A DNA stretch of 64,000 bases from a virus. A program made the position numbers and the translations under genes. Positions 4,004 to 59,570 of the stretch are shown here, in pieces; within the stretch, counting starts at the first letter, position 1, and every line of letters starts with the position of its first letter. The stretch covers positions 64,001-128,000 of IMG/VR virus record IMGVR_UViG_3300045988_102159; one strand, 5' to 3'. Under the pieces are notes generated by a model. It worked only from the letters and a program-made list of their open reading frames with translations. It was not told where the DNA came from and did no database searches.

Positions 4004-4260
4004 TATTTAACTTCCTTCTCTTTAGGAGTGGCTTTTTGCTCCACTTGATTGACTTCTTGCTCCTGCTGTTGAGCTTTAGCCGCAACATCCATATCAATAG
4101 CTCTCAGCATTTCTCCTTGAACTTTTGGATAAAGACTGACAAGAATAGAATTAAGAGCATCTACCATAGCAGTAGCGCTAATTTCGTTTCTTAGCATAAA
4201 ATCGTCAATCATATCTTTTGCGAGAGCATGAACCCTCATACGTACTTCTAATTCGTTCAT
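4003..4260 (-). CDS. Small tail-module protein (85 aa), function unknown
   Basis: ORF track. AGGAGA-type RBS region. Its stop overlaps the start of the next gene. Confidence 0.55.
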   Translation of the reverse strand: MNELEVRMRVHALAKDMIDDFMLRNEISATAMVDALNSILVSLYPKVQGEMLRAIDMDVAAKAQQQEQEVNQVEQKATPKEKEVK

Positions 4261-4282
4261 ATCCTTTTATCTCCTTTTTAAT

Positions 4283-21524: not shown

Positions 21525-21781
21525 CATTATGTTATCTTATAGTTTCCTATAAGTTCAGACTATATCTTCACCTCTAATAATAGAGGGTTTTCCACTTCGC
21601 TTTGTTATAAAGCTACTCCATAAAGGATAGTCGTTGAACGTACTCGTTCGCTGCTGATTACCAGTTAAGGCTTCCAGCAATTCAAAAAAGATTTTACAAC
21701 GCATCGCTGCGCAGGTACCCGAACATCACTTTAAAAGACTACTAACAGACCAATTAAAGACTAATAGCAGACATTCTAGAC
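21525..21781 (-). mobile_element. Group I intron D of major tail gene (257 nt)
   Basis: P1 GUACCU/GGGUAC with U.G at the splice site. Also GAAUUGCUGGAAGCC, GUUCAACGACUA (rc 21628-21639), AGAUAUAGUCU (rc 21557-21568) and a terminal G. Confidence 0.85.
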
Positions 21782-22431
21782 AGGTACTTGGATCGCCATT
21801 GTTCGCCATAGAGAACGTAAAGTTACTCTGGATTTTACCACGAGGAATGACGAATTCGGCAGGAAGGTCTACGCCAGTCTCTTCATCACGGAAAAGTGTA
21901 GACGCTTCAATGTAATAGTAACCAGCGAAGTTCTCAGCATCAATCTGCATCTCATAGGCTTCATCGTAATGAACCTCATAGCAGTCAATGCGGACGGTAT
22001 CGCCAGCCTTTACAGCGGCATCTTGCTTGCTATCGCCGGGTTCATCGGCGGCAAGCTGGAAAGCGATAGTTTTACCTTCGGCTTGAATCTCACCATGATC
22101 GCCAAGGGTGGCGGCAGCTAGGGTCTTGCCATCATTGATAACAAAGACCTGCTTGTCGGTGACAGCAGAAAGGTAATTAGCTTGAGCACCAGCACTATCA
22201 AGAGTAACAGGATAGATAGGAGCTTCTTTTGTAACGATGATAGTCGCGCCATTGCGGTCTTCATCGGTTAACTTGGCGATAATCTTATCGCCAGAGGTTT
22301 CGGCAACCATATCATATGTAGCATGGACATAGATAGGAGTCTTATTTTCACCAGTTTTCTTACCGTGTACTAGACCAGCACCAGACAGCATAGCGAAACT
22401 GGTAGGACTCATTAGAGAGTCTTCAAGAGTG
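21782..22431 (-). CDS. Major tail (tube-like) protein, exon 4
   Basis: Corresponds to track ORF 21726-22412 plus in-frame upstream codons (..TLEDSL-MSPTSF...). The sense ends at ANNGDPST, and the ORF tail CLECLLLVFNW... is intron. An alternative 5' boundary is 22439. Confidence 0.75.
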
Positions 22432-22658
22432 CTTTTTAAACATATATACTTTCATATATAAACAGACTATATCTTATCTTTCGATTTTCTCACTTCCTTG
22501 CTTACAGCAAGTACACCTATACAGGTTAGTCGTTGAACCATTTTATTTGGCTGCGGATTGTCTAATTCTTATGGATTATTACTATAAAATAGTACCATAA
22601 AACTCTAAAGAGGTTCCCGCAATTCAAGAAATTTAATGACCCCCACATTTGTTAATTA
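22432..22658 (-). mobile_element. Group I intron C of major tail gene (~227 nt)
   Basis: P1 UGACCCU/GGGGUCA with U.G. Also AAUUGCGGGAAC, CCGCAGCC, GUUCAACGACUA (rc 22527-22538) and AGAUAUAGUCU (rc 22464-22475). Confidence 0.85.
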
Positions 22659-22679
22659 AGGGTCAGAGTCTTTTCACCA
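22659..22679 (-). CDS. Major tail protein, micro-exon 3 (~19-21 nt, GEKTLT)
   Basis: GGUGAAAAGACUCUGACCCU lies between the 3' end of intron B and the P1 of intron C. The frame from GGU through exons 4 and 5 is exactly 292 codons. The 5' boundary is uncertain (22676-22679). Confidence 0.6.
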
Positions 22680-22911
22680 CATTTGTATTATCTGTATCTT
22701 TATATATACATACAGCTTAGACTATATCTTTATTCTTTTAGAATATCTTGCACTTCGGATTGTAGCATCCTACACCTTAAAGGTTAGTCGTTGAACTTTA
22801 CTAAAAGTCTTAGCTGCGGATTCCCCTCGAAAGGGCTTTCCCGCAATTCACAAAATTTATTTCATTCTTAATGGTATACAAGCATTAAGCGGCCTGAGCA
22901 GTGAAGAAACT
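22680..22911 (-). mobile_element. Group I intron B of major tail gene (~230 nt, boundaries +/-6 nt)
   Basis: Contains AAUUGCGGGAAAGCC, CCGCAGCU, GUUCAACGACUA (rc 22785-22796) and AGAUAUAGUCU (rc 22709-22720). I could not draw a convincing P1 with a U.G pair, so both junctions are approximate. Confidence 0.75.
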
Positions 22912-22935
22912 TTCCCAGGCGATTAGACGAGGATT
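22912..22935 (-). CDS. Major tail protein, micro-exon 2 (~24-30 nt, NPRLIAWE..)
   Basis: AAUCCUCGUCUAAUCGCCUGGGAA starts directly after the omega-G of intron A (22936). It continues exon 1 in frame (..YAQGGKG-NPRLIAWE). The 3' boundary is uncertain (22906-22912). Confidence 0.6.
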
Positions 22936-23676
22936 CATAATATTCTAAATAGGTCGTTACTCTATTTATTGTTTACACAACTATATATTGCTATATAGAT
23001 TAGACTATATCTTATGCTAGATTACTAACATTTTCCTATTTCAAGCTACTTAGCTTTACTTCCTTGCGGAATAGTCGTTGAACTTTATTGAGTTATCCAC
23101 CTATAACCTCCTGTAGTATGACGTTTACCGCTACAAACAAGGCTAATTTTGCTAACACTACAACCTGTCTGACGATGCGCTTCTGACATACTTTTAAATT
23201 CACCAATAACATTTCCATTTAAATCAAGTTGGTAAACAGGAATCTCTGGATAACTTCCACTATTTACTTTATGCTGAACATAGCTATCATTCTTTTGACG
23301 AATAACCCAACGTAAATTTGTCAAATTATTGTCATCTCGAATTTCGTTTATATGATGACATTCCTCTCCTTCTAATGGAGGGCGAAGAAAAGTCTCAAGA
23401 ACCAAACGATGAATACGCCAATGTTTATAAGTGTTATTCTCTGTATTATATAACTTTACATACTGGTATCCATCTTTGTCATATTGAGGTTTCAACATAC
23501 GTTTAGTTGAAACAGTTCTAATTTCACCATGTTCATTTACCTCATAATAAGGAAAATCTTTTACAACTTTCCACATAAATAGCGCTCCAATCTTAGATGC
23601 TGATTGTCTTATAATACTTATATTATATCATAAGAGTTTCCAGCAGTCAAGGAAATTTTACAAGAGCAATCTATTT
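22936..23676 (-). mobile_element. Group I intron A of major tail gene (741 nt) carrying an HNH homing endonuclease ORF
   Basis: P1 AAGGGU/GCUCUU with U.G. Also UUGACUGCUGGAAAC, CAAUCAGCAUC, then the ORF, then GUUCAACGACUA (rc 23072-23083), AGAUAUAGUCU (rc 23002-23012) and a terminal G at 22936. Confidence 0.85.
23085..23576 (-). CDS. Intron-encoded HNH homing endonuclease (163 aa)
   Basis: N-terminal NUMOD4-like W..V.DFPYYEV...G.I motif, an H-N-H core (HRLVLETF...CHHINEIRDDNNLTNLRW) and a C-terminal HTH-like tail. Located inside the ribozyme core between the P6 and P7 elements. Confidence 0.8.
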   Translation of the reverse strand: MWKVVKDFPYYEVNEHGEIRTVSTKRMLKPQYDKDGYQYVKLYNTENNTYKHWRIHRLVLETFLRPPLEGEECHHINEIRDDNNLTNLRWVIRQKNDSYVQHKVNSGSYPEIPVYQLDLNGNVIGEFKSMSEAHRQTGCSVSKISLVCSGKRHTTGGYRWITQ

Positions 23677-33956: not shown

Positions 33957-35378
33957 CTAATGCTTCGTAAAGAACATGAATCCACTTAAATCTCTGGAAT
34001 TGCGGCGATTTCGCCTATCCTCTTGGCGTTTACACCAATAGAGTCCATAGATTAGAGCAGACACTTTATCCTTTAGAATCTTTCTATTGGATTGTTTCAG
34101 AATGATATTTGCACCTTCATTATCTTGTACGAGATTTGCCATCTGTGATTTCAAAATATCAGTGGCAACATATGGCCGCAAATAATCTTGACGCTGTAAC
34201 GGAGTCATTTTCTTTCCTTGCGCTTGCTGCAATAGCTTATTCTTAGCAGTATTAGAGTCAATTAAGAACTTTAACTTGCCGTTGCGTAATTGTGTTTGTG
34301 TATAAGAATATAACTCTGTATTCATTGGAGCATTTGCTTTCATCATCCAAATTGCATTCTTGATTGTATTCTCATTCTCGAACGATTTATAGTTCTTGCG
34401 GTCTTGCTCGTTAGGAATATCGTCTAGATTGATAATACCCATGTTAGGAAGAAGCTCGTCTGTTTCTGGGTCGTTCTGGTCTGTAATTAAGTAATCAAGA
34501 AGTCCAATGCCTAATCCGTTCGCGTCTAAAACGATGGCTTCGCACTTGAACGCATTAAAGAGCTGCTTAATCTTAATTGCTTGATATTCAAAGTGAGATT
34601 CAGATAAAGTGAAGATGTTCACTATCTTCTTATCGTTGACACCTGTTGTTCTTGCAGGAGAAGATTCAATGATTACAATTTCTGTAGGGCAGTTAAGACG
34701 GCCTACGTCTACGCCCATAACGTAAAATGTATCTTTATTTTGTCCCTTGTCGTATCCATTCTTGGCGAGATTGATAATCCTGTGTTTGTCAAACTTATTC
34801 ATATCGAAGAAAGCACCGTCTAAAGTTCCGCTCCAGACTGAGCCGTATTCCCGTTCAAAGCCAATCTCGTCCATCGAATTGCCTGTCTCTTGGGCTTGAA
34901 TATAGTTCGCTGGTTGTAACCCTTCGACTACAGGTACTCTCCAGTCGCCTCCTAGAATGAAAGCATCGTATCCATTGCTAGATACCATGCGACACAGCGC
35001 GTCAATTAGTTTGTCGTAAGCGTAAGTACCTTTGAATCCGGCGCTTGTGACGTAGATGTCGTTCTGGTTCAGTGTCTCGTCTGGGTCTACCTTACCATTG
35101 ACTTTTCTAGAAATTACAAGCATAGGCGCAATGATTTCTTCGTACTTTTGCTGGTCTGTAATGGTCGCTACCTCTTCTGTAAGTACTGCTTGAGCACGGA
35201 AACCACGAGAACCAGAAGTCATGCTTACGTTCTTTATCGTACTTCCGTTGCGGAAACTGTAAGTTACTTCGTCTTTCGATTGACTTGTCTTTGCCAAAGT
35301 TCCTCGTGTGTCCCAAACAATTTCTCTAGCGAGTCCGGGGATTAACTTACATATTTCCTGCATCTTTGATTGCAGAAT
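33957..35378 (-). CDS. terL: Terminase large subunit, exon 2 (473 codons)
   Basis: RNaseH-like nuclease pattern (VMGVDVGR..., IVLDANGLGIG...). The ORF's leading Met is probably intron/exon junction sequence. The 5' boundary is proposed at 35378. Confidence 0.8.
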   Translation of the reverse strand: MLQSKMQEICKLIPGLAREIVWDTRGTLAKTSQSKDEVTYSFRNGSTIKNVSMTSGSRGFRAQAVLTEEVATITDQQKYEEIIAPMLVISRKVNGKVDPDETLNQNDIYVTSAGFKGTYAYDKLIDALCRMVSSNGYDAFILGGDWRVPVVEGLQPANYIQAQETGNSMDEIGFEREYGSVWSGTLDGAFFDMNKFDKHRIINLAKNGYDKGQNKDTFYVMGVDVGRLNCPTEIVIIESSPARTTGVNDKKIVNIFTLSESHFEYQAIKIKQLFNAFKCEAIVLDANGLGIGLLDYLITDQNDPETDELLPNMGIINLDDIPNEQDRKNYKSFENENTIKNAIWMMKANAPMNTELYSYTQTQLRNGKLKFLIDSNTAKNKLLQQAQGKKMTPLQRQDYLRPYVATDILKSQMANLVQDNEGANIILKQSNRKILKDKVSALIYGLYWCKRQEDRRNRRNSRDLSGFMFFTKH

Positions 35379-35584
35379 CATAGCTGATTCATAAAATTAT
35401 AGACTATATCATTTTCTCCGAAGAGAAACTTTCCGCTTCGCCGCATAAGCAGCTACTCCCTTTTAGGATAGTCGTTGAACTTATAAATTAGATGCTGATT
35501 GCCAATAGATGGTGTCCCAGCAGTTCAAAAAGTTAGTTTTTCAAGGTATCGCTACCAAGCAGGACAATCAATTCGTCCTTTTGC
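35379..35584 (-). mobile_element. Group I intron in terL (~206 nt, boundaries +/-15 nt)
   Basis: Contains GAACUGCUGGGACACC, CAAUCAGCAUC, GUUCAACGACUA (rc 35469-35480) and GAUAUAGUCU (rc 35401-35410). Proposed P1 is GCAGAU/GU(C)CUGC with U.G, and omega-G is at 35379. Confidence 0.8.
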
Positions 35585-35923
35585 ATCTGCTACTGTAATC
35601 AAAGTTGAACCAGGATAAAGAATTGCCTTAACCATGAGAGACAAAACAGCCATAAAGGATTTAGAAAATCCTCGACTAAATACTTCATAAACAGTCCTAT
35701 ATCGCATATTAATGCGAAGAATCATACGCTGAGTTGGATAAAATTGAAATTTATTATTAGGGTTGAGTGAAGCCATATAATCCACAAACTTATCTGGATA
35801 CATACGCCAATAGGCAATGATACGTTGATATTTATCTAGATTATCTTCAATCTTCTTTGGGTCAATCTCGGCAACGCTTTTCTTATCATGTGCCGCAATT
35901 TTCAATAAATTACTCAACGCCAT
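35585..35923 (-). CDS. terL: Terminase large subunit, exon 1 (113 codons)
   Basis: ATG 35923 overlaps the stop of the upstream gene (AUGGCGUUGAGUAA). Walker-A-like VFSRGFSKSF motif. The track ORF 35552-36049 runs on into the intron (..AKGRIDCPAW*). Confidence 0.75.
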
Positions 35924-37424
35924 ATTGCTCTGCCAATCTCTTAGCTTCTTCTTCACGTTCCTCAATCTGGAACTGCTGGAAGTCCGCAGCTTCTTCATCA
36001 GTGATCGCATTATCTTCATCGGTCTTGATGCCCTCTGCGATAATTTCATCTACACTCTTGGTCTTATTCTCTTCAAGTTTCTTGATATAAGATTCGATAA
36101 GATTTCCTAGACCAAGCTCGTTCTTAACTAGATTGTCTGTATAGTTCTTCATATCATTGATGATAAAATCAATCTTATCTTGCGGCACATTGATTGGGTC
36201 ATCTTGTCTTGGGATAATACCACCCTTGGACTCTACGAACGCAACAAGCTCTCCAATCGAGTCAATGTCTCTCTTCTTCTCTTCCTGCTTCTGAGAATCG
36301 GTGAATTTGCCTGACTTACGCAACATATCATTGGCTCCCTGTAAGTCTTTAAAGGTCTTAATGTCACCTACATCTAAGGCTTGATTCATCTTTAGGTCTG
36401 TCTTACAGATATTCTTTAATACCTGTTCACGGTCTGTAGACAACTCATAGTCTGCCGCATACTTCTGATATAGTTCTTCCATCTTAACCCACTCAGATGG
36501 CTTATAGAGAAGACCCCATTTAAGAGAAAGATATTTAATATCATCTTCTGTAAGGCTTTCTGTAATCTGCGCTTCATCAATACGCGCAACATCTGGGATA
36601 AATTCATTCTGCATTTCGCCAGTAATGTCTAATGGCGCATTATTGATATTTTCTACAGGGTTCACACCAAGAGAAGAAGCAACATCAGGTATGAGGTCAA
36701 GCACTTGCGGCTCAGGCTCTTCTGTTTCTTTTGGTTGCTCTTTTTTCTTCTCCTTTTCAGCTTTCTTGGCTAAAAATTCCTGCTCAACATCTTTTGCCGC
36801 GCTGATAACATCTTCATTCTTTTTTATTTCTTCTGAACTAACTGTATTTTCAGGAACTTCAAGTTCTTTCTTATCAAGTACGCTGTCAGGATTGCTAGCA
36901 ACCTCTTCCTCGCCTTGCCGCATCTTCTCATTGATACGGTCTAAGACACTTTTGCGACTCATGGTATTGTATTCAGCTTGTGAAATCTCGCCAGCTTTAA
37001 GACTTTCCAAGAGTCTGTTCTCAAACTCTTCATCATATGATGTGCCTTTGATGTTCTGTTGCTCTTTCCTAGCTTGCTGGAATTTCTCATTATTAATTCG
37101 CTCAGAATCCGCATACGTTAGATTCTTATATTGTTCCATATTCATAGTGCGAAGATATGTGCCGATAACCGACATAGGACCAAATGTGGCAGGGTTTTTC
37201 ATATAGCTTTTATTTGCTAATTCAACCCATTTCTTCTCAACATACGGCACGTCCATCTTCTTTAAAATCCATTTGAATGTATCTGGACGGCGATTGTCAA
37301 TATACATCGTTAGGCAAGTCTTACAAAGGTCACATCTTTCATCTTTATTAGGTATCTTATAGAAATCTGTTTCCTTTTTTGTCTTGCCGCATTTCGCGCA
37401 TGTTTTCATAGGTACGTCTGCCAT
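35910..37424 (-). CDS. Packaging-module protein with N-terminal zinc ribbon (504 aa), terminase small subunit candidate
   Basis: Start moved to ATG 37424 (AAGGAG RBS). Carries CAKCGKTKKETDFY...CDLCKTC and a long acidic/coiled middle region. Sits immediately upstream of terL. Confidence 0.5.
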   Translation of the reverse strand: MADVPMKTCAKCGKTKKETDFYKIPNKDERCDLCKTCLTMYIDNRRPDTFKWILKKMDVPYVEKKWVELANKSYMKNPATFGPMSVIGTYLRTMNMEQYKNLTYADSERINNEKFQQARKEQQNIKGTSYDEEFENRLLESLKAGEISQAEYNTMSRKSVLDRINEKMRQGEEEVASNPDSVLDKKELEVPENTVSSEEIKKNEDVISAAKDVEQEFLAKKAEKEKKKEQPKETEEPEPQVLDLIPDVASSLGVNPVENINNAPLDITGEMQNEFIPDVARIDEAQITESLTEDDIKYLSLKWGLLYKPSEWVKMEELYQKYAADYELSTDREQVLKNICKTDLKMNQALDVGDIKTFKDLQGANDMLRKSGKFTDSQKQEEKKRDIDSIGELVAFVESKGGIIPRQDDPINVPQDKIDFIINDMKNYTDNLVKNELGLGNLIESYIKKLEENKTKSVDEIIAEGIKTDEDNAITDEEAADFQQFQIEEREEEAKRLAEQYGVE

Positions 37425-37487: not shown

Positions 37488-38576
37488 TTATTTCTTTTTA
37501 GATTTGCGGCACTCACGACATGTAGAATAGAAGCCATCTTTCGCGGAATTATTCTTTGAGAAGAATAAAGGATGTGCCAACTTGGTCTTTCCGCATTTGC
37601 CGCACTTTTTCCATTGTCCATATTCCACATTTGTGTAATACCACATAACATAATTCTTTTGAGCCTGTTCCGCAATCATCTTTGGAATCTTTTTACGCCA
37701 TAGCGTTGAAAAATATTGTGCTGTATGTGAAACACCATATTCAGCTTCCATCATGCCGCATATCTCATCATTCGATTTTCCATCAATCTTCCATATTAAA
37801 AGGTCATACAGCATAGATGTTGTTTGGTCTTTAGATTTAAAGGTCTGTTCAATTAAATTCTCAAGGTCTAGAAGCTCCCAATGCATATCACAATTAAGGT
37901 CAGTATAGCATTCCTGCTTGATTGATGAATAATATGTTAGTAAGAATGAAATGTGGACTGGGTTGAATAATGAAATAACTCCATCGGATACAGGATAACC
38001 ACGTGAATCGAAATAAATCTTCTCAGACAAGTCCATATGCGCCATGTTCTTTAGCTGCGCTGAAACCTTCGACTTTGCGGGCCAGCCCTTGACTGATTGC
38101 TTTAGTAAATACATTTGCTGATATGTCTCGATAATCTGCTTTTTCAGGTAATAACGTTGCTTACCAGTAGCAGAAAGAAATTGTCGTTTTAGTGATGTGA
38201 TGATAGAATCGAATTCCTGCATACCTGGGATATTCTCTAAGTCATCTTCTGAGATAGTATCTTTATTATCTAGTATTTGATTCTTATCGTTATTGACGAG
38301 TGCGTAGATGCCATCCTCGCCATTCTCCATATTTTCAACCATTTCCTCAAAAGAAATCTGTCGTTTGTTTACTGTTGCTTCTCTATTCTTTGTGATAATA
38401 CTACGTTCTTTTTTCTTTTCCTTTTTGGTTTGATTTCTGTCTGCGGCAAAGAGCAAATAATCTGTCATAACACGCAGATAATTTGCATCTAGATTCTCTT
38501 GAGAAGTGGTTTCAATGGTTTCCCGCACACATTTAAGTCGTTCTTCCTGTGTCTTCAATGTGTAATCAAGTGCCAT
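37488..38576 (-). CDS. Putative DNA-binding regulator (sigma region-4-like HTH) with C-terminal zinc ribbon (362 aa)
   Basis: First gene of the leftward late operon. Segment ...GKSNDEICGMMEAEYGVSHTAQYFSTLWRKKIPKM... resembles a sigma-70 region 4 HTH. C-terminal CGKCGKTKLAHPLFF...CRECRK. Confidence 0.4.
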   Translation of the reverse strand: MALDYTLKTQEERLKCVRETIETTSQENLDANYLRVMTDYLLFAADRNQTKKEKKKERSIITKNREATVNKRQISFEEMVENMENGEDGIYALVNNDKNQILDNKDTISEDDLENIPGMQEFDSIITSLKRQFLSATGKQRYYLKKQIIETYQQMYLLKQSVKGWPAKSKVSAQLKNMAHMDLSEKIYFDSRGYPVSDGVISLFNPVHISFLLTYYSSIKQECYTDLNCDMHWELLDLENLIEQTFKSKDQTTSMLYDLLIWKIDGKSNDEICGMMEAEYGVSHTAQYFSTLWRKKIPKMIAEQAQKNYVMWYYTNVEYGQWKKCGKCGKTKLAHPLFFSKNNSAKDGFYSTCRECRKSKKK

Positions 38577-38616
38577 ATCTTTACTTCTCCTTTTCTATTG
38601 GTTTTATTGCAACTAT

Positions 38617-38645
38617 ATTATACCACAAAAAAGTATGAAGTGCAA
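38617..38645 (-). promoter_or_regulatory. Sigma-70-type promoter of the leftward late/packaging operon
   Basis: -35 TTGCAC (rc 38640-38645), 17-bp spacer, -10 TATAAT (rc 38617-38622), with a T/A-rich upstream region. Confidence 0.6.
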
Positions 38646-38699
38646 GTTTGTCAAGAAAAAATTTTAAATATTTTAAAAATTTTTTCTATGTATATTATA

Positions 38700-39300
38700 T
38701 TTAAGTATGCGGCAAATGTGATTACCGTTTTTTGCCCATAAAATGATTACACTCGCTAGTTTGCTCCTAAAATGATTACACCTACGATTGGCCGCATCAG
38801 TAGTGCTGTTATAAGTTGCCGCTCGCTTCGCTGCCCTCAGCGAGCGCAACGGCAGACTATTTGTTTTTTCTATTGGAAAAAACTTGAGCGTAGCGAAAGT
38901 TTATAGCGAATGGCGCTACGTAGTAGCGACAATCGCCTAGTGCTGTATTGGATATACTTAAAATGGATAGAGATGTACCTATAAAGATGTATAGAAAATT
39001 CTGCACGATTACCCATGCTCACTCTCCCCTTGCATGAAACCTATTGGATGTGCTACTTTTCTAAGAGTATCCTATCCCCTCTGTATGCGGCACGGTAGAG
39101 ATACCGTTCGTCTCCTGTAAACTAATAAACCAACGCAAGACCGCTTGGCTACAGAAATATTCTACTGCAAGTGAGAGTACATCCATACTTCTCACGGCAG
39201 AATAAATCTGTAACGTTTAAGACCCAGCTATTCACCTCATTGGGGATTTTTGATTTAGGATAGCTCCTAAGCCGACTGGGAACGGCGCTATGGTTAGTTT
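38700..39300 (-). ncRNA. Candidate large structured non-coding RNA or structured operon leader (~600 nt)
   Basis: No credible ORF. Downstream of a perfect consensus promoter. At least 7 GC-rich stems sit in AT-rich context, e.g. GTTGCCGCTCGCT...AGCGAGCGCAAC at 38817-38857, ACGGTA-gaga-TACCGT near 39093, and a ~70-nt imperfect hairpin at 39152-39222. A G.U pair favours the minus strand. Confidence 0.3.
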
Positions 39301-39307
39301 AAAATGT

Positions 39308-39336
39308 ATTATAATAGATAATTAGATATTTGTCAA
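39308..39336 (-). promoter_or_regulatory. Perfect consensus sigma-70 promoter, leftward
   Basis: TTGACA (rc 39331-39336), 17 bp, TATAAT (rc 39308-39313). Confidence 0.7.
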
Positions 39337-39533
39337 TATCTTTTTCTATTGGCTTATGAGGAACTATCGTCCCTCTCTTGGGTTTTTATTCTAGCATATT
39401 TTTTTTGAAAAGTCAATGGTTTTGTGAAAATTTTTTTATGCGGACAATGCCATAATCGGAAATACCAAGAAAGCCAATAGAGGAAATAAATAAGAAAGGT
39501 ATTTCATTTTATGGAATTTGAAAAATCCTCTTA

Positions 39534-39614
39534 GGTCGTATTTTGGTATTTGAAAAAATGATTTTGGTCGGTATTTTGGTATTTCAAAAAATAACTGAGG
39601 TCGGTAATTTGTGC
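39534..39614. repeat. Three direct repeats GGTCG(G)TATTTTGGTATTT(G/C)AAAAAAT (~32-bp period)
   Basis: Copies start at 39534, 39566 and 39599 (the last partial). An inverted repeat GAAATACC/GGTATTTC lies just to the left (39454-39505). Confidence 0.7.
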
Positions 39615-39655
39615 AGGGCGGGGCGTGCCTGGCCAAAAACCGGACAAAAACCTAA

Positions 39656-39692
39656 AACAGACCCCCGGGCACGCTTGCCCGGGGCGTCTTTT
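39656..39692. terminator. GC-rich hairpin terminator
   Basis: GACCCCCGGGCA-cgct-TGCCCGGGGCGTC flanked by A-run and T-run, directly after the stop of 39694-40059. Confidence 0.65.
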
Positions 39693-39693
39693 A

Positions 39694-40059
39694 TTATTTC
39701 AGTAGCTTAGCGTCCGCGAGTCGGTCAAGCGCTTCCCCCACGTGCGCTGAATAATCGAAGCTCCATCCACCTATGAGCGCATCGGCGAACGTCTCCACGG
39801 TGTCACTGTCGAACGTCTCTAAGTCGTTGACAAGACGCGCGGCAATGGCTGCAACCGTGCTATCAGATACCGGCCTACGGCCCTCAAACGCCACAGACAG
39901 CGCGCTAACGGTTGCGCCGTCCCTAATAGCCGTGAGCGTCAAAACCTCACCGTGAGCGGCCGCACAGACGGCGAGAACGTGGCCCGCGTTGGTCGATGTG
40001 CGAGCGATGCAAACAGGACGATTAGAGCGGGCAAGCAGGCGGACGGTAGACTTTTTCAT
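39694..40059 (-). CDS. GC-rich hypothetical protein (121 aa)
   Basis: AGGAGC RBS and a terminator. GC content is far above the neighbourhood. Confidence 0.6.
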   Translation of the reverse strand: MKKSTVRLLARSNRPVCIARTSTNAGHVLAVCAAAHGEVLTLTAIRDGATVSALSVAFEGRRPVSDSTVAAIAARLVNDLETFDSDTVETFADALIGGWSFDYSAHVGEALDRLADAKLLK

Positions 40060-40153
40060 GTTTAGGCTCCTAACCTAGAATCGAGCGCGGGCGGTATTGC
40101 CCGCTATGGATAGTATAGGGCAAAACTTTATCTGATGCAATAGAAACTTTAGC

Positions 40154-40182
40154 TAGACAACGGGATGGTTTTGACCTATACT
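40154..40182 (+). promoter_or_regulatory. Rightward promoter
   Basis: TAGACA, 17 bp, TATACT. Confidence 0.5.
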
Positions 40183-40237
40183 ATACAGCGTAGCGGGGAT
40201 ATAGGGTCGCCCGCGCGTAGAAGGTCAGGAGGACTCA

Positions 40238-40543
40238 ATGCTTTTCATGGATTATGATAGCGTCAAGTTCAAGGATTACGTCAAGAGTTTTTGCATCATC
40301 CCGCGCGTTCGTAACGGCGCTGCCGAGTTTACACTACTTGTGCAGCTGGTGAACAACGAGCGCACAGAAGTTTACGACGACACTTACAAAGACCCGTGCG
40401 ACCTGCTGCATGACCTCCGCAACGGCTGGTATCTGGGCCGAGGGATGCAGGAGCCAGCATACTATGAGGCCGTCCGAGACCTCACGGCATACGTGGACGG
40501 ACTAGCAGATGCTGGATTAAACGTTGCTCGTATAGACAGATAA
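40238..40543 (+). CDS. Hypothetical protein (101 aa)
   Basis: AGGAGG RBS and a downstream terminator. Confidence 0.65.
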   Translation: MLFMDYDSVKFKDYVKSFCIIPRVRNGAAEFTLLVQLVNNERTEVYDDTYKDPCDLLHDLRNGWYLGRGMQEPAYYEAVRDLTAYVDGLADAGLNVARIDR

Positions 40544-40550
40544 TCAACGA

Positions 40551-40581
40551 GGACCGGGGTTAAAACCCGGTCCGTTTTTTT
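40551..40581 (+). terminator. Intrinsic terminator
   Basis: GGACCGGG/CCCGGTCC stem followed by 7 T. Confidence 0.75.
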
Positions 40582-40904
40582 AGGTAACGTAAAACCTAAA
40601 GGGTGGGGATGATTCCACTAACTCGAATTATGTTTTTTTTGGTGTAAAATTGCAATTCTCGACCTCAACCCAATAGCTTTGTGCTAGACCGAACAAACGT
40701 TCGGTTGTTGACGCATCAACATCGAACAGACGTTCGGGGTGTCGGTAATTCCGTGGTCGGGACTTTGCCTTGTCACGCTCACATATGGCAAAAATTTCAT
40801 GATTTTGGCCTATATTGCCAACAGCCCCTGAATCCTGATTGTCATATAAAGCAAACTATGATATGCTTTCAAGTAAAGAAAAGCCCAATAGAAGGGATAT
40901 AGAA

Positions 40905-41219
40905 ATGGGTGAAAACATTCAGATAGAACTTACTAACGGTGAGGTTCTAGAAATTGATGAGTTCGATTTAGACGCGTTGGCACTGCAAGCTAAGTATCGT
41001 ATGGCTTCTCGCCCGTGGTCACAGAACGGCTATGACCTTTATTGTACGTGCAAAGATACGTTCGTCGATTATTTTGAGGTTCGCGTAACGAATGAAACTA
41101 CAATCGAGGTCGAGAGTAAATGTTGGGGTGACGCAGTAGAGTATATAGCAAAAAATAGCTTAGATGCTAATCGAATGGCATTAGCTTTGATGCAACGTAT
41201 CGACATAATAATAGAGTAA
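40905..41219 (+). CDS. Hypothetical protein (104 aa)
   Basis: Track ORF 40839 trimmed to ATG 40905 with GAAGGGA RBS. A terminator hairpin follows at ~41225-41255. Confidence 0.6.
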   Translation: MGENIQIELTNGEVLEIDEFDLDALALQAKYRMASRPWSQNGYDLYCTCKDTFVDYFEVRVTNETTIEVESKCWGDAVEYIAKNSLDANRMALALMQRIDIIIE

Positions 41220-41340
41220 AGTAAAGGCGTTGCCGCAAGTGGTAGCGCCTTTATTATTGTCTATCTCATGCGGAACAATCCAAGAGACAAAAGAGTATCA
41301 ATACAAACATAAATAGTCGAAACTTTTTAGTTGCGCTCAT

Positions 41341-41369
41341 GCGGCCAAAGTGCTATACTTTCAGTAAGG
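41341..41369 (+). promoter_or_regulatory. Rightward extended -10 promoter
   Basis: TTGCGC, 17 bp, TGcTATACT. Confidence 0.55.
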
Positions 41370-41396
41370 AAACTAACCAAGAGAAAGGATACAACA

Positions 41397-41705
41397 ATGG
41401 GCTATGATACGTATGAGCTTTGGTTTAATTGTTGTAGCTGTCTACTTATTCAAGAAGAAGAATTGGAAACAATTGCAGAACAGGTAAAGGACTATACAAA
41501 CAAGCACCCATATGATAATACTATTTCTGATATTTATGACACTACCCAAAATATACTGCAAGAGTTTTTAGAAAAGCAGATGACCGAAGTAATGCTTTCA
41601 TCTGGAGATGAAAGTAAGATAGAATATAATGCTGCGATTAGCCGAGATGATGAAACATTTTTGATATTTAAAGTATTAGACAAGATAAATGTTACTATTG
41701 AATAG
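41397..41705 (+). CDS. Hypothetical protein (102 aa)
   Basis: Track ORF 41331 trimmed to ATG 41397 with GAAAGGA RBS. A terminator follows. Confidence 0.6.
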   Translation: MGYDTYELWFNCCSCLLIQEEELETIAEQVKDYTNKHPYDNTISDIYDTTQNILQEFLEKQMTEVMLSSGDESKIEYNAAISRDDETFLIFKVLDKINVTIE

Positions 41706-41813
41706 ATTAAAACAAGGCGTTACTAAATAGTAGCGCCTTTATTTTGTTTAGAATAATTAAAGCACTTGCCGCAAACACTATAGTTCTTTAGTCTCATGAT
41801 ATGCGGCCTATGT

Positions 41814-41827
41814 TTCACGTGAAACGT
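41814..41827. repeat. Perfect 14-bp palindrome GTTTCACGTGAAAC (copy 1 of 4)
   Basis: Read directly from the sequence. Confidence 0.9.
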
Positions 41828-41955
41828 TAATAGCATCCTGAAACCATAACCAAGTGCCGCATAGTCAAGCAACTGTTTTAGTTGCTTTTGGTCTGATGCA
41901 ACTGTTTTAGTTGCTCTTCTGGTTGACCATGCAAAAAGGGCGAAGCCCACAAAAA

Positions 41956-42003
41956 GGCCATTTATGGCCGCGAAATTATACACCATGCGTACAGCTTTGT
42001 CAA
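41956..42003 (-). promoter_or_regulatory. Leftward promoter-hairpin cassette a
   Basis: TTGACA (rc 41998-42003), 17 bp, TATAAT (rc 41975-41980), then hairpin GGCCA-TTTA-TGGCC (41956-41969) followed by T's on the minus strand. Confidence 0.6.
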
Positions 42004-42200
42004 GAGTTTTTGACGAGATTTTTCAAAACTTTTTTCTCCACACAGTGCCCACAATCCCGAAACTGGGCATACTTTTGCATTCCATCGCATGGGACAAAAG
42101 CAGGTCTATTTTAAATTGCCGTCTTTTTTGCTTTTGCGCTGAAAATGACTTTTAATCTGATTTTGAAATTGAATCTGAAAATGATTTCTGATTTGAAAAT

Positions 42201-42263
42201 TGATTTTGAATCTGATTTTCAATTTGATTTTGAATCTGATTTTCAATTTGATTTTGAATCTGA
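42201..42263. repeat. 24-bp tandem repeat TGATTTTGAATCTGATTTTCAATT x2.6 within a wider degenerate array (42150-42265)
   Basis: Read directly. It is responsible for the DFESDFQF repeats in the spurious ORF 42145-42354. Confidence 0.85.
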
Positions 42264-42267
42264 AAAT

Positions 42268-42281
42268 GTTTCACGTGAAAC
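42268..42281. repeat. GTTTCACGTGAAAC (copy 2)
   Basis: Read directly from the sequence. Confidence 0.9.
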
Positions 42282-42315
42282 GCAAGCGCGCCGTAGGCGA
42301 AACTTAATCACAAAA

Positions 42316-42363
42316 GCCCATTTATGGGCAGAAAATTGTACTACCGCGATTTAGTTTTGTCAA
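42316..42363 (-). promoter_or_regulatory. Leftward promoter-hairpin cassette b
   Basis: TTGACA (rc 42358-42363), 17 bp, TACAAT (rc 42335-42340), hairpin GCCCA-TTTA-TGGGC (42316-42329). Confidence 0.6.
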
Positions 42364-42406
42364 GAACTTTTTTCAAAAAATTTTTTGGCGCACTTGCCGC
42401 CCGAGT

Positions 42407-42432
42407 CCAAAAAAAGGCTCCCCGAGGGGAGC
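42407..42432 (-). terminator. Terminator of the leftward 63-aa gene
   Basis: GGCTCC-ccgagg-GGAGCC followed by a T-run on the minus strand. Confidence 0.6.
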
Positions 42433-42442
42433 CTAGCCGAAC

Positions 42443-42634
42443 TTATGAAAATTGCTCTATGTTCTGGTCGATTACATTACGGATGGTGGTTAGCGCTTCA
42501 AGTATTTCGTCCTTCTGCTTTTGGATTATCTCGCGCTCGCGGTCGCTTTTGGCGTTAGCGTAGTTCGCCTGAGCCGAGTAAAGCATCCCGAGAAGGTCGA
42601 GGGTAGGCAGGCTTGCGAGGTTTTTGTCGATCAT
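42443..42634 (-). CDS. Hypothetical helical protein (63 aa)
   Basis: Track ORF trimmed to ATG 42634 with AAGGAG RBS. It has its own leftward promoter (TTGCGC, 18 bp, TATACT near 42680-42715) and a terminator. Confidence 0.6.
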   Translation of the reverse strand: MIDKNLASLPTLDLLGMLYSAQANYANAKSDREREIIQKQKDEILEALTTIRNVIDQNIEQFS

Positions 42635-42759
42635 TTGAAACTCCTTTAGTTTGTTCTTCCCAACTGACAAGGTCAGTATACACCTGCTAGGGCATGGTGC
42701 GCAATAGTTATTTTGAAAAAAGTTTCCCCAAAAGCAAAAAAGTTTTTAGAAAAAAGTTC

Positions 42760-42788
42760 TTGCGCTCGGTATAATGTTCCCTTATACT
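42760..42788 (+). promoter_or_regulatory. Rightward promoter of the early-cassette type
   Basis: AAAAAGTTCTTGCGC, 17 bp, TATACT. Same upstream half as the leftward early promoters. Confidence 0.6.
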
Positions 42789-42827
42789 ATAGTTGTAACG
42801 CAAGGAGCTAACCCAAAGGAGTTGCCA

Positions 42828-43010
42828 ATGTTCAAGAACAGCACAATGGCAAAGTGGTATGATATTGTCGAGGTCATTGCATGGATTGTCTATGCCGCAA
42901 CATTCGTCTGGTTCCTGCTCACGGATGCGAACGCTGCTGTAAATGCTAACTTATTAGCGGCTGCGTGGGCGTTTCCCATGCAAATGTACCGCGCCTATTG
43001 GAATTTGTAG
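42828..43010 (+). CDS. Small membrane protein (60 aa)
   Basis: ATG 42828 with AAGGAG RBS and a hydrophobic core. Confidence 0.55.
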   Translation: MFKNSTMAKWYDIVEVIAWIVYAATFVWFLLTDANAAVNANLLAAAWAFPMQMYRAYWNL

Positions 43011-43087
43011 AAAATATGGCGGTTGCAATAACCGCCATAATCTGATAGAATAATAAGCGTAGCGAAGCAACAAGGAAAGGAAATACT

Positions 43088-43558
43088 ATGTGCAACATTG
43101 ACAAGACCATCAAGGAGCTGAACACGGCTCTGGTTCTGCTTGACGCTTTTGGTGATGGGCATGAGTTCACTATGCACCATTATGAGGAACTTGCCGCAAC
43201 CGCCAACGAGCTTTTTGGTGGTCGTTACAGCGATTCAAACGTTTGCTATAGTGTTAGTTGGGTTCGCAAGCATCTAAACTATTTCGGCATTCATAAGACT
43301 GGTTCGCGTGAGATTGAAGTTATTAGTTCTCACAAAGTTTACAAGAGTGTTTATAGTGACTTTTTTAAGGGTATATACGATGGGAACAAAATTGATACTA
43401 AAACCGTTGAGCAATTCATTTACCGCATGGATGCAGTAGAGGACTGCAAGAACTTTATCAAGCGTCGCAAGGATGAAATTCGTTGTGAAATGGATAGAAT
43501 AGAAGCGACCATCGAGCGCGACAAGCAGCGTCTTGAAACACTCAAGAAAATGCTTTAG
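43088..43558 (+). CDS. Hypothetical protein (156 aa)
   Basis: AAGGAAAGGA RBS and a terminator. Confidence 0.65.
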   Translation: MCNIDKTIKELNTALVLLDAFGDGHEFTMHHYEELAATANELFGGRYSDSNVCYSVSWVRKHLNYFGIHKTGSREIEVISSHKVYKSVYSDFFKGIYDGNKIDTKTVEQFIYRMDAVEDCKNFIKRRKDEIRCEMDRIEATIERDKQRLETLKKML

Positions 43559-43570
43559 CAGATAGCAAAA

Positions 43571-43600
43571 CCGTCCATCTGAAAAGGTGGGCGGTTTATT
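43571..43600 (+). terminator. Intrinsic terminator (plus-strand specific)
   Basis: CCGTCCATC/GGTGGGCGG. The two U.G pairs become C.A mismatches on the other strand. Confidence 0.65.
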
Positions 43601-48627: not shown

Positions 48628-49056
48628 ATGGCTACCACTCGCACCAAGTTCCAGTTCACCGACTACCAGATGTTCGCGGCTCTCGTGAACGTCGCAGGCG
48701 ATATCTCGCCCGAGGTCATTGCCAAGGCTTTGGGGGATAACTATGACCCCGAGAAGCACACGCCTGAGAGCCTTGCCCGCAAGGTCTCGCATAAGTTCCA
48801 TGTTCTCAAGGAGAACGCGACCAAGCCCAAGGCCCCGAGCAAGACGGCACAGCTGAATAAGGCGCTTGCCGAGCAGGTTGCTGCTGAGTTCGCGGACGGT
48901 GAGCCGTTCACGCTTAATGACGTGATGGCAAAGCACCCAGCCGATATCAAGACGTTTAGCAAGGCGGGTGTTGTGGTGAACGTACTCCTTGCCGAGAAGC
49001 GTGTCCGCAAGGCGGCACCTATCAACAACAAGACCGCCTATGTTATCGTAGCGTAG
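48628..49056 (+). CDS. GC-rich winged-helix-like protein (142 aa)
   Basis: Track ORF 48520 trimmed to ATG 48628. C-terminal pattern ...KAGVVVNVLLAEKRVRKA..NNKTAYVI resembles 50858-51187. Confidence 0.5.
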   Translation: MATTRTKFQFTDYQMFAALVNVAGDISPEVIAKALGDNYDPEKHTPESLARKVSHKFHVLKENATKPKAPSKTAQLNKALAEQVAAEFADGEPFTLNDVMAKHPADIKTFSKAGVVVNVLLAEKRVRKAAPINNKTAYVIVA

Positions 49057-49131
49057 CCGTCTATAGGGTGGGGGAGATAATCCCCCACCCACTACCCAAG
49101 CACCTATAAAACAGCATAAGGACGGTCACGT

Positions 49132-49398
49132 TTGGAATCCTACAGACGTAACGCGCTAATTGCAGCATTTGGCGAGCTACCCGACAAAGAGTTGCAATGC
49201 CTAGGGCGCGGGCTAGAAGCTCACCACGTAAACAGCATGGCAAGCGGAAACGTAGTTTTGCTACCTTGCGAGATTCATAAAGTGGTTCACACACTAACGC
49301 AATTGGGCGGTAACGCCTACGCGAGCGGTGAGATAGAGAACGCCGAAACGCTCACCAAATGCGCACAAATGCTATTAGCGCAATTTACAATAAAATAA
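49132..49398 (+). CDS. Small HNH-motif protein (88 aa, TTG start)
   Basis: EAHHVNS...GNVVLLPCEIHKVVH; AAGGA RBS; terminator. Confidence 0.45.
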   Translation: MESYRRNALIAAFGELPDKELQCLGRGLEAHHVNSMASGNVVLLPCEIHKVVHTLTQLGGNAYASGEIENAETLTKCAQMLLAQFTIK

Positions 49399-49413
49399 CA
49401 CAATTAAATAAAT

Positions 49414-49444
49414 AACCCCACCGGGTAGGTGGGGTTTTCTTTTG
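49414..49444 (+). terminator. Intrinsic terminator
   Basis: AACCCCACC/GGTGGGGTT followed by a T-rich tail. Confidence 0.7.
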
Positions 49445-49553
49445 CGTTTAATTCCTACTAAAAAGGTAGGAAAAAGATCGCCCTGCCCAGCACAAACGCG
49501 CGAAAAAGTCAAGACTTTTTGAAAAAATTCACAGAAATTCCATAGTTGGGTCG

Positions 49554-49583
49554 ATTTTACACGATTAGGTACCTTATTGTCAA
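49554..49583 (-). promoter_or_regulatory. Leftward promoter g
   Basis: TTGACA (rc 49578-49583), 18 bp, TAAAAT (rc 49554-49559). Remnant hairpin CCATAGTTGG lies to its left. Confidence 0.5.
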
Positions 49584-49764
49584 GATTTTTCAAGCAAAAA
49601 CACAACTTTTACACAAAAAACTGAGCGCCTGAAACGCGTTTAAACGACCTTGCGCCCGGTTCCCTTGCGTTCCTAGGCACTTTTGGCTATCGCCCGCTCT
49701 AGGGCTATCTCAGGGCCGCACACGCGAAAAAAATTAACTTCGGTACCGAGCGACCCGAGCAGGT

Positions 49765-49780
49765 GTTACCCTAGGTAAAC
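49765..49780. repeat. Near-palindrome GTTACCCTAGGTAAAC
   Basis: Read directly from the sequence. Confidence 0.85.
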
Positions 49781-49791
49781 TCCGAGTTATT

Positions 49792-49805
49792 GTTAGGTAC
49801 CTAAC
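49792..49805. repeat. GTTAGGTACCTAAC (copy 2)
   Basis: Read directly from the sequence. Confidence 0.9.
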
Positions 49806-49845
49806 TATTATTTGTGGAGATTCCGTGTTGGTTTTGTGAAGGTAC

Positions 49846-49874
49846 TTGACAAATCAATAATTGTATAGTATAAT
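49846..49874 (+). promoter_or_regulatory. Perfect consensus sigma-70 promoter, rightward
   Basis: TTGACA, 17 bp, TATAAT. Confidence 0.7.
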
Positions 49875-50374
49875 ATAATAGAGTAATACTATACAATAAT
49901 ACCATATTTGGGACTGCCGCCGCCGTTGCGCCCATATGGCGAAATTGTGTAGAAATGGGGACTATATGCCAAGAGCCTATAAAATCCTAAAACGAAAGTC
50001 AATCCTAAAATTAAATAAAAAAATCCCTCCACACCTATATAGTGAGAAGGGACAGAACTACCATATGTATATGCCAAGAGAACGTTCTAAAATGAATTTT
50101 AATCGTTTTTTGCGTACCCCTGTACGGCATAAGAAAAATAAGTCTATTTGTCTTGATTCCTGCGGCCAGTAGAAACTCAAAACTAATCGTAAAAGACTTT
50201 AGGCTCACACAAACCAAGAGACAGAAGAAAAAGAAGCGTGCGGCACATGCCTTTTGTAAGTGAAAATTAATGCGGAAATGTGACTAATTTAGTTACATTT
50301 AAAAAGTGTTTTTTTAATATATGTTTTTACTAAGGTATAAATTACACATTCCTGCCCAAAAATTTTGGCCGCAT

Positions 50375-50746
50375 TTACTTTGCCTTGGGCTTGCGCTTGC
50401 ACACCATAGATAGCTCATACGTCTTGGAATTGAGAATGAATCGGATTTTGCCATCATCGCCTACCTCGATGCCATGCGGCGCATCCTCCCAGTCACCGAT
50501 GGTCATGGTAAGTTCTCCCAGTGCGTCCGCAATGGAATTCATAATCAATCGCTTTTCAGACATTTTCTTCTCCTTCTTGTCTGTGTCAGGTCGATAGGCT
50601 GCGTCATATTCGATTCCATTTTCAATCAAAAAAAGGTTGGCAGCGCTTGCCTTGAGTATTGCCTGCTGTCTCTTGGACTCGATATACTCATCAGGAATAT
50701 CTATGGTATGCTCGTTACCCTTCATATCATAATAGGTGTGCCGCAT
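50375..50746 (-). CDS. Hypothetical early protein (123 aa)
   Basis: CCAAGAGA leader and AAGGAAG RBS. Confidence 0.6.
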   Translation of the reverse strand: MRHTYYDMKGNEHTIDIPDEYIESKRQQAILKASAANLFLIENGIEYDAAYRPDTDKKEKKMSEKRLIMNSIADALGELTMTIGDWEDAPHGIEVGDDGKIRFILNSKTYELSMVCKRKPKAK

Positions 50747-59408: not shown

Positions 59409-59570
59409 CTAGTATAGAGACAACTTATTCTCTGGTACGTAGACTGTAGAACCATTTAGATATTTAACAAGGACTGTCCCATTGCTATTGAAGTGCAGAA
59501 TCTTAACGACACTTACAAGACCATTAGGACCAGTATAGGTAACATAATCTCCAACAGACAGCTTAATCAT
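59409..59570 (-). CDS. Hypothetical early protein (53 aa)
   Basis: Trimmed to ATG 59570 with GAGGA RBS. Confidence 0.5.
   Translation of the reverse strand: MIKLSVGDYVTYTGPNGLVSVVKILHFNSNGTVLVKYLNGSTVYVPENKLSLY

Follow-up and report, generated by a model that had tools for sequence, protein, structure and literature searches.

Comparative evidence for a ~335-nt structured non-coding RNA gene at the head of the late operon in one clade of SPbeta-like gut phages

What occupies the ~600 nucleotides (nt) that separate a perfect consensus promoter from the packaging and structural operon of an SPbeta-like phage? The stretch in question, positions 38700-39336, belongs to the IMG/VR virus record IMGVR_UViG_3300045988_102159, of which we analysed positions 64,001 to 128,000 (64,000 nt, hereafter the window). 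An earlier note on this DNA, made from the sequence and without database searches, had proposed a large structured RNA or, alternatively, a DNA packaging site of the pac or cos type. Our comparison with related phages shows that a structured RNA gene of ~335 nt is real and was previously undescribed. The assignment of the minus strand at 39301-38967 to a highly structured non-coding RNA (ncRNA) of this length is well supported by comparative analysis, and how the RNA acts is what we infer from it.

A conserved island and its fold

The RNA gene and its parts are located as follows.

39308-39336, minus strand: promoter of the RNA gene (TTGACA at 39336-39331, a 17-nt spacer, TATAAT at 39313-39308)
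38967-39301, minus strand: conserved structured ncRNA core of ~335 nt, defined by the conservation island, the consensus fold, the pair counts and the tests of strand and selection
39119-39300, minus strand: 5′ domain, in which the stacked helices P1-P3 close a three-way junction with arms P4/P5 and P7/P8
39149-39213, minus strand: P7/P8 hairpin of 65 nt, with 11 pairs changed on both sides
39092-39107, minus strand: P9 hairpin, ACGGUA/UACCGU, with invariant loop bases CUCU and a change from G-C to A-U in four sequences
38977-39091, minus strand: 3′ domain, closed by the long-range helix P12 and enclosing P13, P14 and P15

To delimit the element, we compared the region across 14-25 sister genomes. 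Positions 39313-38959 are 91-94% identical throughout, and their flanks are 70-77% identical or unalignable. In bins of 100 nt, identity is 93-96% with full coverage at 39000-39300 and 67-81% at 39300-40200, while 38700-38999 is covered in just 29-78% of the sister genomes. The 5′ end of the core is the inferred transcription start, ~7 nt beyond the -10 box, and its 3′ limit was set where conservation collapses. The region of ~600 nt that the earlier note had treated as one unit therefore falls into three parts, namely the core (39301-38967), a variable spacer (38966-38790) and the control region of the downstream sigma-factor-like gene (38781-38617). Only the first of these, about 335 nt, stands as a conserved unit; the rest, 38966-38700, consists of spacer and next-gene control sequence.

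The strength of the constraint can be gauged against this neighbouring sigma-like gene, whose codon position 3 is 79.7% identical and whose positions 1 and 2 are 98.0% identical. Outside P7/P8 the mean pairwise identity of the core is 95.1% (96.4% at paired and 93.7% at unpaired positions), so that purifying constraint on it is nearly as strong as on protein-coding positions. The P7/P8 hairpin, at 84.4%, drifts almost neutrally in sequence with its pairing and length kept, which is the signature of a structural spacer. Since the core forms a single strongly conserved island within an otherwise mosaic regulatory region, the phage clearly needs this RNA.

The fold was derived from 33 distinct full-length homologues, recovered by scanning metagenomes and viral collections for invariant motifs and belonging without exception to one narrow clade of ~140-kb SPbeta-like human-gut phages. 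The consensus comprises 90 pairs in 15 helices, and 99.1% of its cells are paired. Both sides have changed in 15 pairs, compared with 6.1 +/- 1.6 when columns were shuffled (none of 500 shuffles reached 15) and with 0-7 in a control where partners were slid by 1-3 columns. These double changes lie in P7/P8 (11 pairs), P9, P12 and P15, and arose in at least five separate lineages. In P12, where UAGAAAA pairs with UUUUCUA, A-U has become G-C in six sequences; in P15 two pairs are changed on both sides, with one genome (L073) alone turning C-G into A-U. Compensatory changes in homologous regions, which the earlier note had named as a check on its structured-RNA reading, are hence found beyond both the shuffled and the slid controls.

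The same alignment distinguishes the strands. G-U pairs make up 10.9% of cells, and 99.1% of cells are paired on the minus-strand RNA versus 88.7% on the complement; the consensus fold has an energy of -77.6 kcal/mol on the former versus -55.6 on the latter. Because the G-U pairs fit only that strand, the functional molecule is the minus-strand, promoter-driven transcript. Folding energy alone cannot assign the strand: against shuffles, z is -4.0 for a 661-nt stretch (20 shuffles) and -2.8 for the 335-nt core (one of 100 shuffles folds equally well), but the plus strand gives -4.9. The features generally expected of a structured ncRNA, that is, more compensatory changes than in controls, G-U pairs that fit one strand only and purifying selection in excess of the neutral rate, are thus all present. 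The structured-RNA reading of the earlier note holds on these grounds, although neither the families it named nor its size of ~600 nt does.

All the stems first listed in that note are present in the sequence. The pairing of ACGGTA with TACCGT is P9, where compensatory changes occur, and the imperfect hairpin of ~70 nt is P7/P8 (~39149-39213); a 12-bp bulged GC-rich stem was found too, at 38817-38857, in the variable spacer. Variation gives no support to the proposed pairing of AGCTAT with ATAGCT. Instead, CCCAGU (39280-39275) pairs with RCUGGG (39228-39223) and a UUAGGA/UCCUAA hairpin forms. The 5′ domain is recovered by minimum-energy folding of the single sequence, and its P4/P5 arm holds an invariant single-stranded segment of 28 nt, AAAUCAAAAAUCCCCAAUGAGGUGAAUA. 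In P7/P8 the internal loop UUGCA and the apical loop GGAU are conserved, and the 3′ domain exposes two invariant, purine-rich apical loops, GGGAUAGGAUA (39078-39068) and AAGGGGAGAGUGA (39031-39019). A covariation search for pseudoknots was swamped by lineage-correlated columns.

Two resemblances were set aside. A terminator-like hairpin at 39018-39003 is an artefact, as its U-run is the 3′ strand of the covarying helix P12, pairing with UAGAAAA, and position 39007, which the hairpin requires, varies among C, A, G and T across genomes. With no match to CRISPR or tracrRNA models, we judged the likeness by eye of UUAGGAGCUAU to a repeat of type II-A CRISPR systems a coincidence.

The promoter that the earlier note had pointed out, TTGACA-17-TATAAT at 39336-39308 on the minus strand, scores 12/12 for the sigma-70/sigma-A type. 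Sister lineages carry TTGAAA-17-TATAAT with an extended -10 TG, and in the alignment both hexamers are kept in all lineages. Helix P1 starts 2-5 nt past the predicted transcription start, which argues that promoter and RNA form one unit. We also find no credible ORF between 38577 and 39693. Across the homologues no ORF keeps its position or frame on either strand, and 1-nt indels within the core shift frames; a coding role for the core was therefore rejected.

A mosaic slot between the early region and the late operon

The sequences that surround the RNA are the following.

37488-38576, minus strand: sigma-factor-like regulator gene of 362 amino acids (aa), matching phrog_5767 (E=2e-41)
38617-38722, minus strand: two promoter-like sites for the sigma-like gene, ATCACA-17-TATAAT at 38722-38694 and TTGCAC-17-TGgTATAAT at 38645-38617
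38721-38781, minus strand: regulatory boxes of the sigma-like gene, outside the RNA, with two copies of GTGTAATCATTTTA beside TGGGCAAAAAACGGTAAT
38790-38966, minus strand: lineage-variable spacer, swapped for unrelated sequence of ~95-300 nt in sister lineages and tolerating insertions
39357-39438, minus strand: upstream promoter-like site and leader, with TTGACT-17-TAGAAT at 39416-39388

The window is part of a ~140-kb tailed phage, whose nearest relatives are contigs of 93-147 kb from human-gut metagenomes in IMG/VR and ENA. The minus strand at 688-38576 is a structural and packaging operon that includes a portal, a terminase related to YonF of SPbeta, a YonG-like protein, tape-measure pieces and giant proteins. 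The sigma-like gene opens this operon, with the YonG-like, terminase and portal genes behind it; at 90% identity, its protein falls into a cluster of 1262 sequences. We regard the phage as SPbeta-like because the Pfam families YonG_N and YonD_N are found beside homologues of the sigma-like gene in relatives.

Our results show that the RNA is confined to one clade, in which the sigma-like gene keeps 96% identity or more, and that every member of this clade retains it. In two relatives whose gene is 74% identical (L020 and L021), its slot (in L020, the locus at 4005-4722) is filled by an ORF for a GIY-YIG endonuclease of 199 aa. The bounds of the slot can be read from this pair: on one side 39438-39357 is 91% identical to the promoter and leader of the GIY-YIG gene of L020, and on the other the box at 38752-38721 is 100% identical. 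The window thus retains the promoter and leader of the endonuclease (39357-39438) without its gene. Distant relatives and SPbeta itself were searched with an nhmmer profile of the family and a covariance model of the 3′ domain, and neither method found a homologue of the RNA in the relatives or in SPbeta; relatives with a 55-61% identical gene have only 190-630 nt upstream of it, also with no homologue by either method. Among relatives with a 55-75% identical gene, all of which lack the RNA, the slot either carries a GIY-YIG gene or leaves the RNA no room, with gaps of only 190-400 nt.

Wider searches gave the same picture. Comparison of 38500-39800 with 50,697 GenBank phage records by blastn (word size 11) gave no match. 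Exact-motif scans recovered only the same 17-19 contigs in IMG/VR, two chance matches in GTDB genomes (the one inspected, L045, sits inside an ORF), and 37 true and 8 chance matches in JGI/ENA metagenomes. The 17-mer CCCCAATGAGGTGAATA also occurs in 41 small viral contigs, where it lies inside a P-loop coding motif in those that were read, and no match extends further. Across these three collections the RNA is found as one copy per genome and in no other context. Literature searches with sequence strings, covering 8 million papers and one set of supplements, gave no match either. Being absent from relatives and lying in a recombination-prone slot, the RNA is therefore an accessory cassette; it is specific to its clade, and the mosaic slot it occupies separates the early region from the packaging and late operon.

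In a remoter relative (L048 4640-5800), the ORF-less DNA ahead of the sigma-like gene contains several promoter-like sites, and behind each of them come TCGGCC and GC-rich hairpins. Here the equivalent slot may house small RNAs of other kinds.

Downstream of the core, the spacer always carries a GC-rich hairpin without a U-tail (38817-38857 in the window), whose shape is kept and whose sequence is not. The direct repeat reported in the earlier note corresponds to 22-nt copies at 38731-38752 and 38760-38781, 91% identical to each other. The 32-nt stretch 38721-38752 that includes one of them is 100% identical in relatives with a 74%-identical gene (L020 4753-4784) and recognisable at 55%, and the boxes at 38721-38781 are probably a control site of the late and packaging operon. 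Of the two promoter-like sites of the sigma-like gene, which are separated by an AT-rich tract, the downstream one had already been noted and we read it likewise as TTGCAC-17-(TG)TATAAT at 38645-38617.

Several repeats mark this ~1-kb region. Three exact minus-strand copies of CCAATAGAAAA lie within it, at 38591-38601, 38866-38876 and 39342-39352, and with one mismatch allowed there are 15 matches window-wide versus 4.1 expected. One copy is the leader just ahead of the ribosome-binding site of the sigma-like gene; the two others flank the RNA module in the window's lineage only and may be recombination joints. Further upstream, a tandem array at 39512-39611 (3.1 copies of the 33-nt unit TGGTATTTGAAAAAATAATTTAGGTCGGTATTT) lies between the RNA promoter and a GC-rich, bidirectional terminator-like hairpin at 39663-39684. 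Its copy number appeared in the alignment to vary among sister genomes, though copies were not counted, and the repeats could be iterons or operator sites.

Beyond the hairpin, ORF121 (39694-40059, minus strand) encodes an Ala-rich protein of 121 aa and lies in a stretch with a raised G+C content of 46-47% versus ~37%. A family search gave no match for it; the protein is 72-89% identical in most sister genomes, and the ORF is frameshifted, truncated or missing in several. The early region at 40200-43600, right of the divergent promoters, is strongly mosaic, with 0-79% of sister genomes aligning per 100-nt bin. Other ORF-poor stretches lie at 41705-43088 and 49056-50375.

The genome itself is rich in group I introns and HNH genes. 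Three score above the Rfam gathering score within ~1.4 kb (21536-22916, minus strand), around the ORF of a virion structural protein (21726-22412), and an ORF for an HNH endonuclease lies near this cluster at 23085-23576. A fourth, at 35382-35584 on the minus strand (Intron_gpI, 47.2 bits where the gathering score is 50; local scan, E=5e-11), is an insertion of ~187 nt that splits the YonF-like terminase gene into ORFs 35552-36049 and 33957-35381. It is missing from all 14 sister genomes compared, in which positions 35387 and 35577 abut.

Proposed function and competing explanations

We favour, with a probability of roughly 0.5, the reading that the folded RNA targets a protein or ribonucleoprotein (RNP) partner in trans at an early stage of infection. 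The rationale for it is that the RNA is dispensable in relatives, that the spacer behind it is swapped and lengthened between lineages, that the next gene has two promoter-like sites of its own, and that the invariant parts of the RNA are loops and junctions, not stems. Host RNA polymerase would transcribe the RNA early and abundantly, and the RNA would then work through its folded shape and not through antisense pairing. Its contact surface would be formed by the invariant junction strands and the purine-rich apical loops GGGAUAGGAUA, AAGGGGAGAGUGA and GGAU, the partner being a host or phage protein or RNP, and the long P7/P8 hairpin would serve only as a structural spacer. Since the cassette is dispensable and its slot an accessory one, the RNA most likely influences a host or takeover function in trans and does not serve a core process of the phage.

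Several points weigh against this overall reading. The RNA is known from sequence alone, its 3′ limit being set by conservation, and all its homologues belong to one narrow clade. About half of the helices are invariant among these 33 homologues, hence uninformative and backed by energy alone, and kinship inflates some of the simple covariation counts. No partner protein was identified, and ORF121 was rejected as an obligate one, since it is truncated or missing in several genomes that carry the RNA. By a plain count, GGA or Shine-Dalgarno-like motifs are not clearly enriched overall. Furthermore, although the RNA has a promoter of its own, as an independently terminated trans-acting small RNA gene would, we found no intrinsic terminator belonging to it: only GC-rich hairpins without a U-tail follow the core, and in the four lineages scanned the DNA from the RNA to the sigma-like gene shows no canonical terminator. 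As a consequence, the RNA may be just the 5′ part of a long messenger RNA, which favours a role in cis.

A cis-acting leader of the late and packaging operon is the rival that survives best, and we consider it possible. Here, transcription from the strong promoter would read through into the sigma-like gene and the folded leader would time late expression, by processive antitermination, by regulated read-through at the GC-rich hairpin or by stabilisation of the 5′ end. Besides the missing terminator, the RNA is co-directional with the operon and stands at its head in every genome, the hairpin of conserved shape follows it in all lineages, and SPbeta offers a parallel in position, with an ncRNA that precedes yonK in YonO-dependent late transcription (PMC5467207). 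However, relatives carrying the same operon lack the RNA, so that it is not needed for late expression. The intervening spacer is unrelated between lineages, ranges over 95-300 nt and tolerates insertions, and the sigma-like gene has its two promoter-like sites downstream of the RNA. No conserved alternative pairing of the terminator/antiterminator kind was found either, the lone terminator-like hairpin hanging on a freely varying base, and known antiterminator RNAs such as put are much smaller than this RNA.

A bolder extension of action in trans, which we hold only tentatively, would make the RNA a new functional class: during takeover it would capture a host factor or reprogramme it, or else it would be catalytic or self-assembling, with the invariant purine-rich loops as its active surface. 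Candidate targets would be the ribosome or the anti-Shine-Dalgarno sequence, RNA polymerase, a regulator that binds GGA, or a defence protein directed by RNA. If this were true, an RNA of this sort at the start of the late operon would be a general feature of SPbeta-like phages, SPbeta itself having an unrelated ncRNA there.

It is improbable that the RNA is part of a replication origin, as a folded primer or R-loop RNA beside iteron-like repeats in the manner of ColE1 RNA II or the T4 origin transcripts. The locus does have three 33-nt tandem repeats (39512-39611) ~180 nt upstream of the promoter and an AT-rich tract at 38655-38705, and it lies at a boundary of divergent transcription units near a local minimum of cumulative GC skew. 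But gene orientation confounds that minimum, no initiator gene was identified nearby, nothing links the repeats with the RNA, and close relatives, which must also replicate, lack it.

We see just as little reason to tie the RNA to mobile or selfish DNA or to take it for a new ribozyme, and rate this as a long shot. The same slot, with shared flanks, holds a free-standing GIY-YIG ORF in L020, the module is bracketed in the window's lineage by direct repeats of 12 nt (TTTTTCTATTGG), the window contains HNH genes as well as four group I introns, and both the size and the invariant junctions of the RNA are ribozyme-like. Against this, the repeats beside the module are lineage-specific, exons for splicing are missing, no intron or ribozyme model matches although the same models find the four introns elsewhere in the window, and the element is single-copy and confined to one context in the three collections.

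A DNA-level packaging site, the other suggestion of the earlier note, is very unlikely. A terminase gene lies two genes downstream, several metagenomic contigs end in or near the region, and SPbeta-like phages package from an intergenic pac site (bioRxiv 10.1101/2021.11.22.469490). Yet the constraint is one of base pairing on one strand, as the 10.9% of G-U cells would be A-C on the other, and the element begins exactly at a promoter. Moreover, contig breaks nearby are scattered over differing positions, consistent with assembly breaks beside hypervariable sequence, relatives that share the terminase lack the element, and in SPbeta the pac site is found elsewhere than at the late-operon head, namely between yonR and yonP (bioRxiv 10.1101/2021.11.22.469490).

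Finally, a divergent member of GOLLD, ROOL, HEARO, OLE or another Rfam family, for which only the phage context and the multi-helix architecture speak, is scarcely credible given that 4227 Rfam 15 models gave nothing at gathering score and only chance-level rows at E<=10 over 1.4 kb and 366 nt.

Comparison with known RNAs

This last result comes from cmscan with Rfam 15, run on the whole window at gathering score and on 38400-39800 and 38950-39315 at E<=10. No family was found at the locus at gathering score, and the rows at E<=10 were scattered and had E>1. The earlier suggestion of GOLLD or ROOL, with HEARO and OLE also named, accordingly found no match, and we conclude that the RNA is none of GOLLD, ROOL, HEARO, OLE, 6S RNA, packaging RNA (pRNA), T-box, riboswitch or any known class of intron or ribozyme.

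Individual candidates were rejected on further grounds. For a group I intron, the Intron_gpI model is silent at 38950-39315 though it finds four introns elsewhere in the window, and the slot is intergenic, without flanking exon ORFs. For a riboswitch or T-box leader no model matches; furthermore, an expression platform is argued against by the spacer, unrelated between lineages, the lack of an intrinsic terminator in four lineages and the gene's own promoters. For 6S RNA there is no model match, and the comparative fold is a three-way junction with a separate 3′ domain and no central bubble. The phi29-type pRNA model gives no match. Nor does the RNA look like an antisense regulator of phage genes: predicted to pair with 59 translation-initiation regions, it does so no better than shuffled RNA, and sequences complementary to its loops do not recur in the rest of the window.

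Only rarely does a new structured RNA of over 300 nt come with clear comparative support. Earlier examples, such as GOLLD, ROOL, OLE and raiA, proved unusual in their biochemistry or architecture. The phage lineage that carries the present RNA is often met in human-gut metagenomes, and dozens of independent gut assemblies yielded the RNA. Large orphan ncRNAs of phages and prophages include GOLLD and ROOL, and also raiA and the drum, skipping-rope and DUF3800 motifs (Weinberg et al. 2017, PMC5737381). The RNA resembles these in being phage-borne, ORF-less and multi-helical, in combining invariant junctions and loops with covarying stems, in having been found comparatively and in having no established function, but it matches none of them in sequence or structure. 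Compared with GOLLD and ROOL (580-800 nt), it measures ~335 nt, is confined to one phage clade and has no tRNA genes nearby; indeed, ARAGORN found neither tRNA genes, the usual neighbours of GOLLD and ROOL, nor tmRNA in the 64-kb window.

Among phage leader RNAs, put of HK022 is ~70 nt long with two stem-loops, and the '6S' leader of lambda pR′ needs no conserved fold. What they share with the present case is a strong constitutive promoter that yields non-coding RNA directly ahead of late genes; in contrast to them, the RNA has a 335-nt fold, is followed by a variable spacer before the gene and is dispensable in relatives. Where it lies and which way it is read would suit a put-like processive antiterminator, and scans downstream detected no canonical terminators. 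With the pRNA of phi29 it shares a phage origin, structure and a strong host-type promoter, and the invariant, complementary bases CUCU of the P9 loop and AGAG of L15 could in principle form a kissing contact in the modelled fold. However, it is about twice the size of pRNA, and relatives with homologous packaging genes lack it.

Abundant, folded, protein-binding RNAs such as 6S RNA and the CsrB/RsmZ-type sponges offer another likeness, as three of the six apical loops here contain GGA. Unlike in the sponges, there are only ~6 GGA motifs, a number near chance, and no model matches. A CsrB/RsmZ-type sponge is not known from Firmicutes.

The closest parallel in position is SPbeta itself: according to Forrest et al. 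2017 (PMC5467207), late transcription that depends on YonO begins there ahead of 'an unannotated non-coding RNA', which precedes yonK. In its genome (NC_001884; L140 19153-20833, minus strand) we find an ORF-less gap of 1.68 kb between yonK and yonN that contains a DUF3800-VIII motif (record positions 59409-59474, 47.5 bits versus a gathering score of 40.2). This gap, the place to which Forrest et al. assigned their RNA, also contains a sub-threshold match resembling skipping-rope just past yonN. Both phages are of the same type, and in both an ORF-less structured stretch lies directly upstream of, and co-directional with, the packaging and structural operon. The parallel is one of position only, as the two RNAs share no detectable homology and the window has no DUF3800-VIII motif; besides, it is the phage polymerase YonO that transcribes the SPbeta region, whereas the RNA described here has a host-type consensus promoter. 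Taken together with the uncharacterised late-operon ncRNA of SPbeta, this RNA raises the testable question of how SPbeta-like phages control or exploit the transition from early to late expression.

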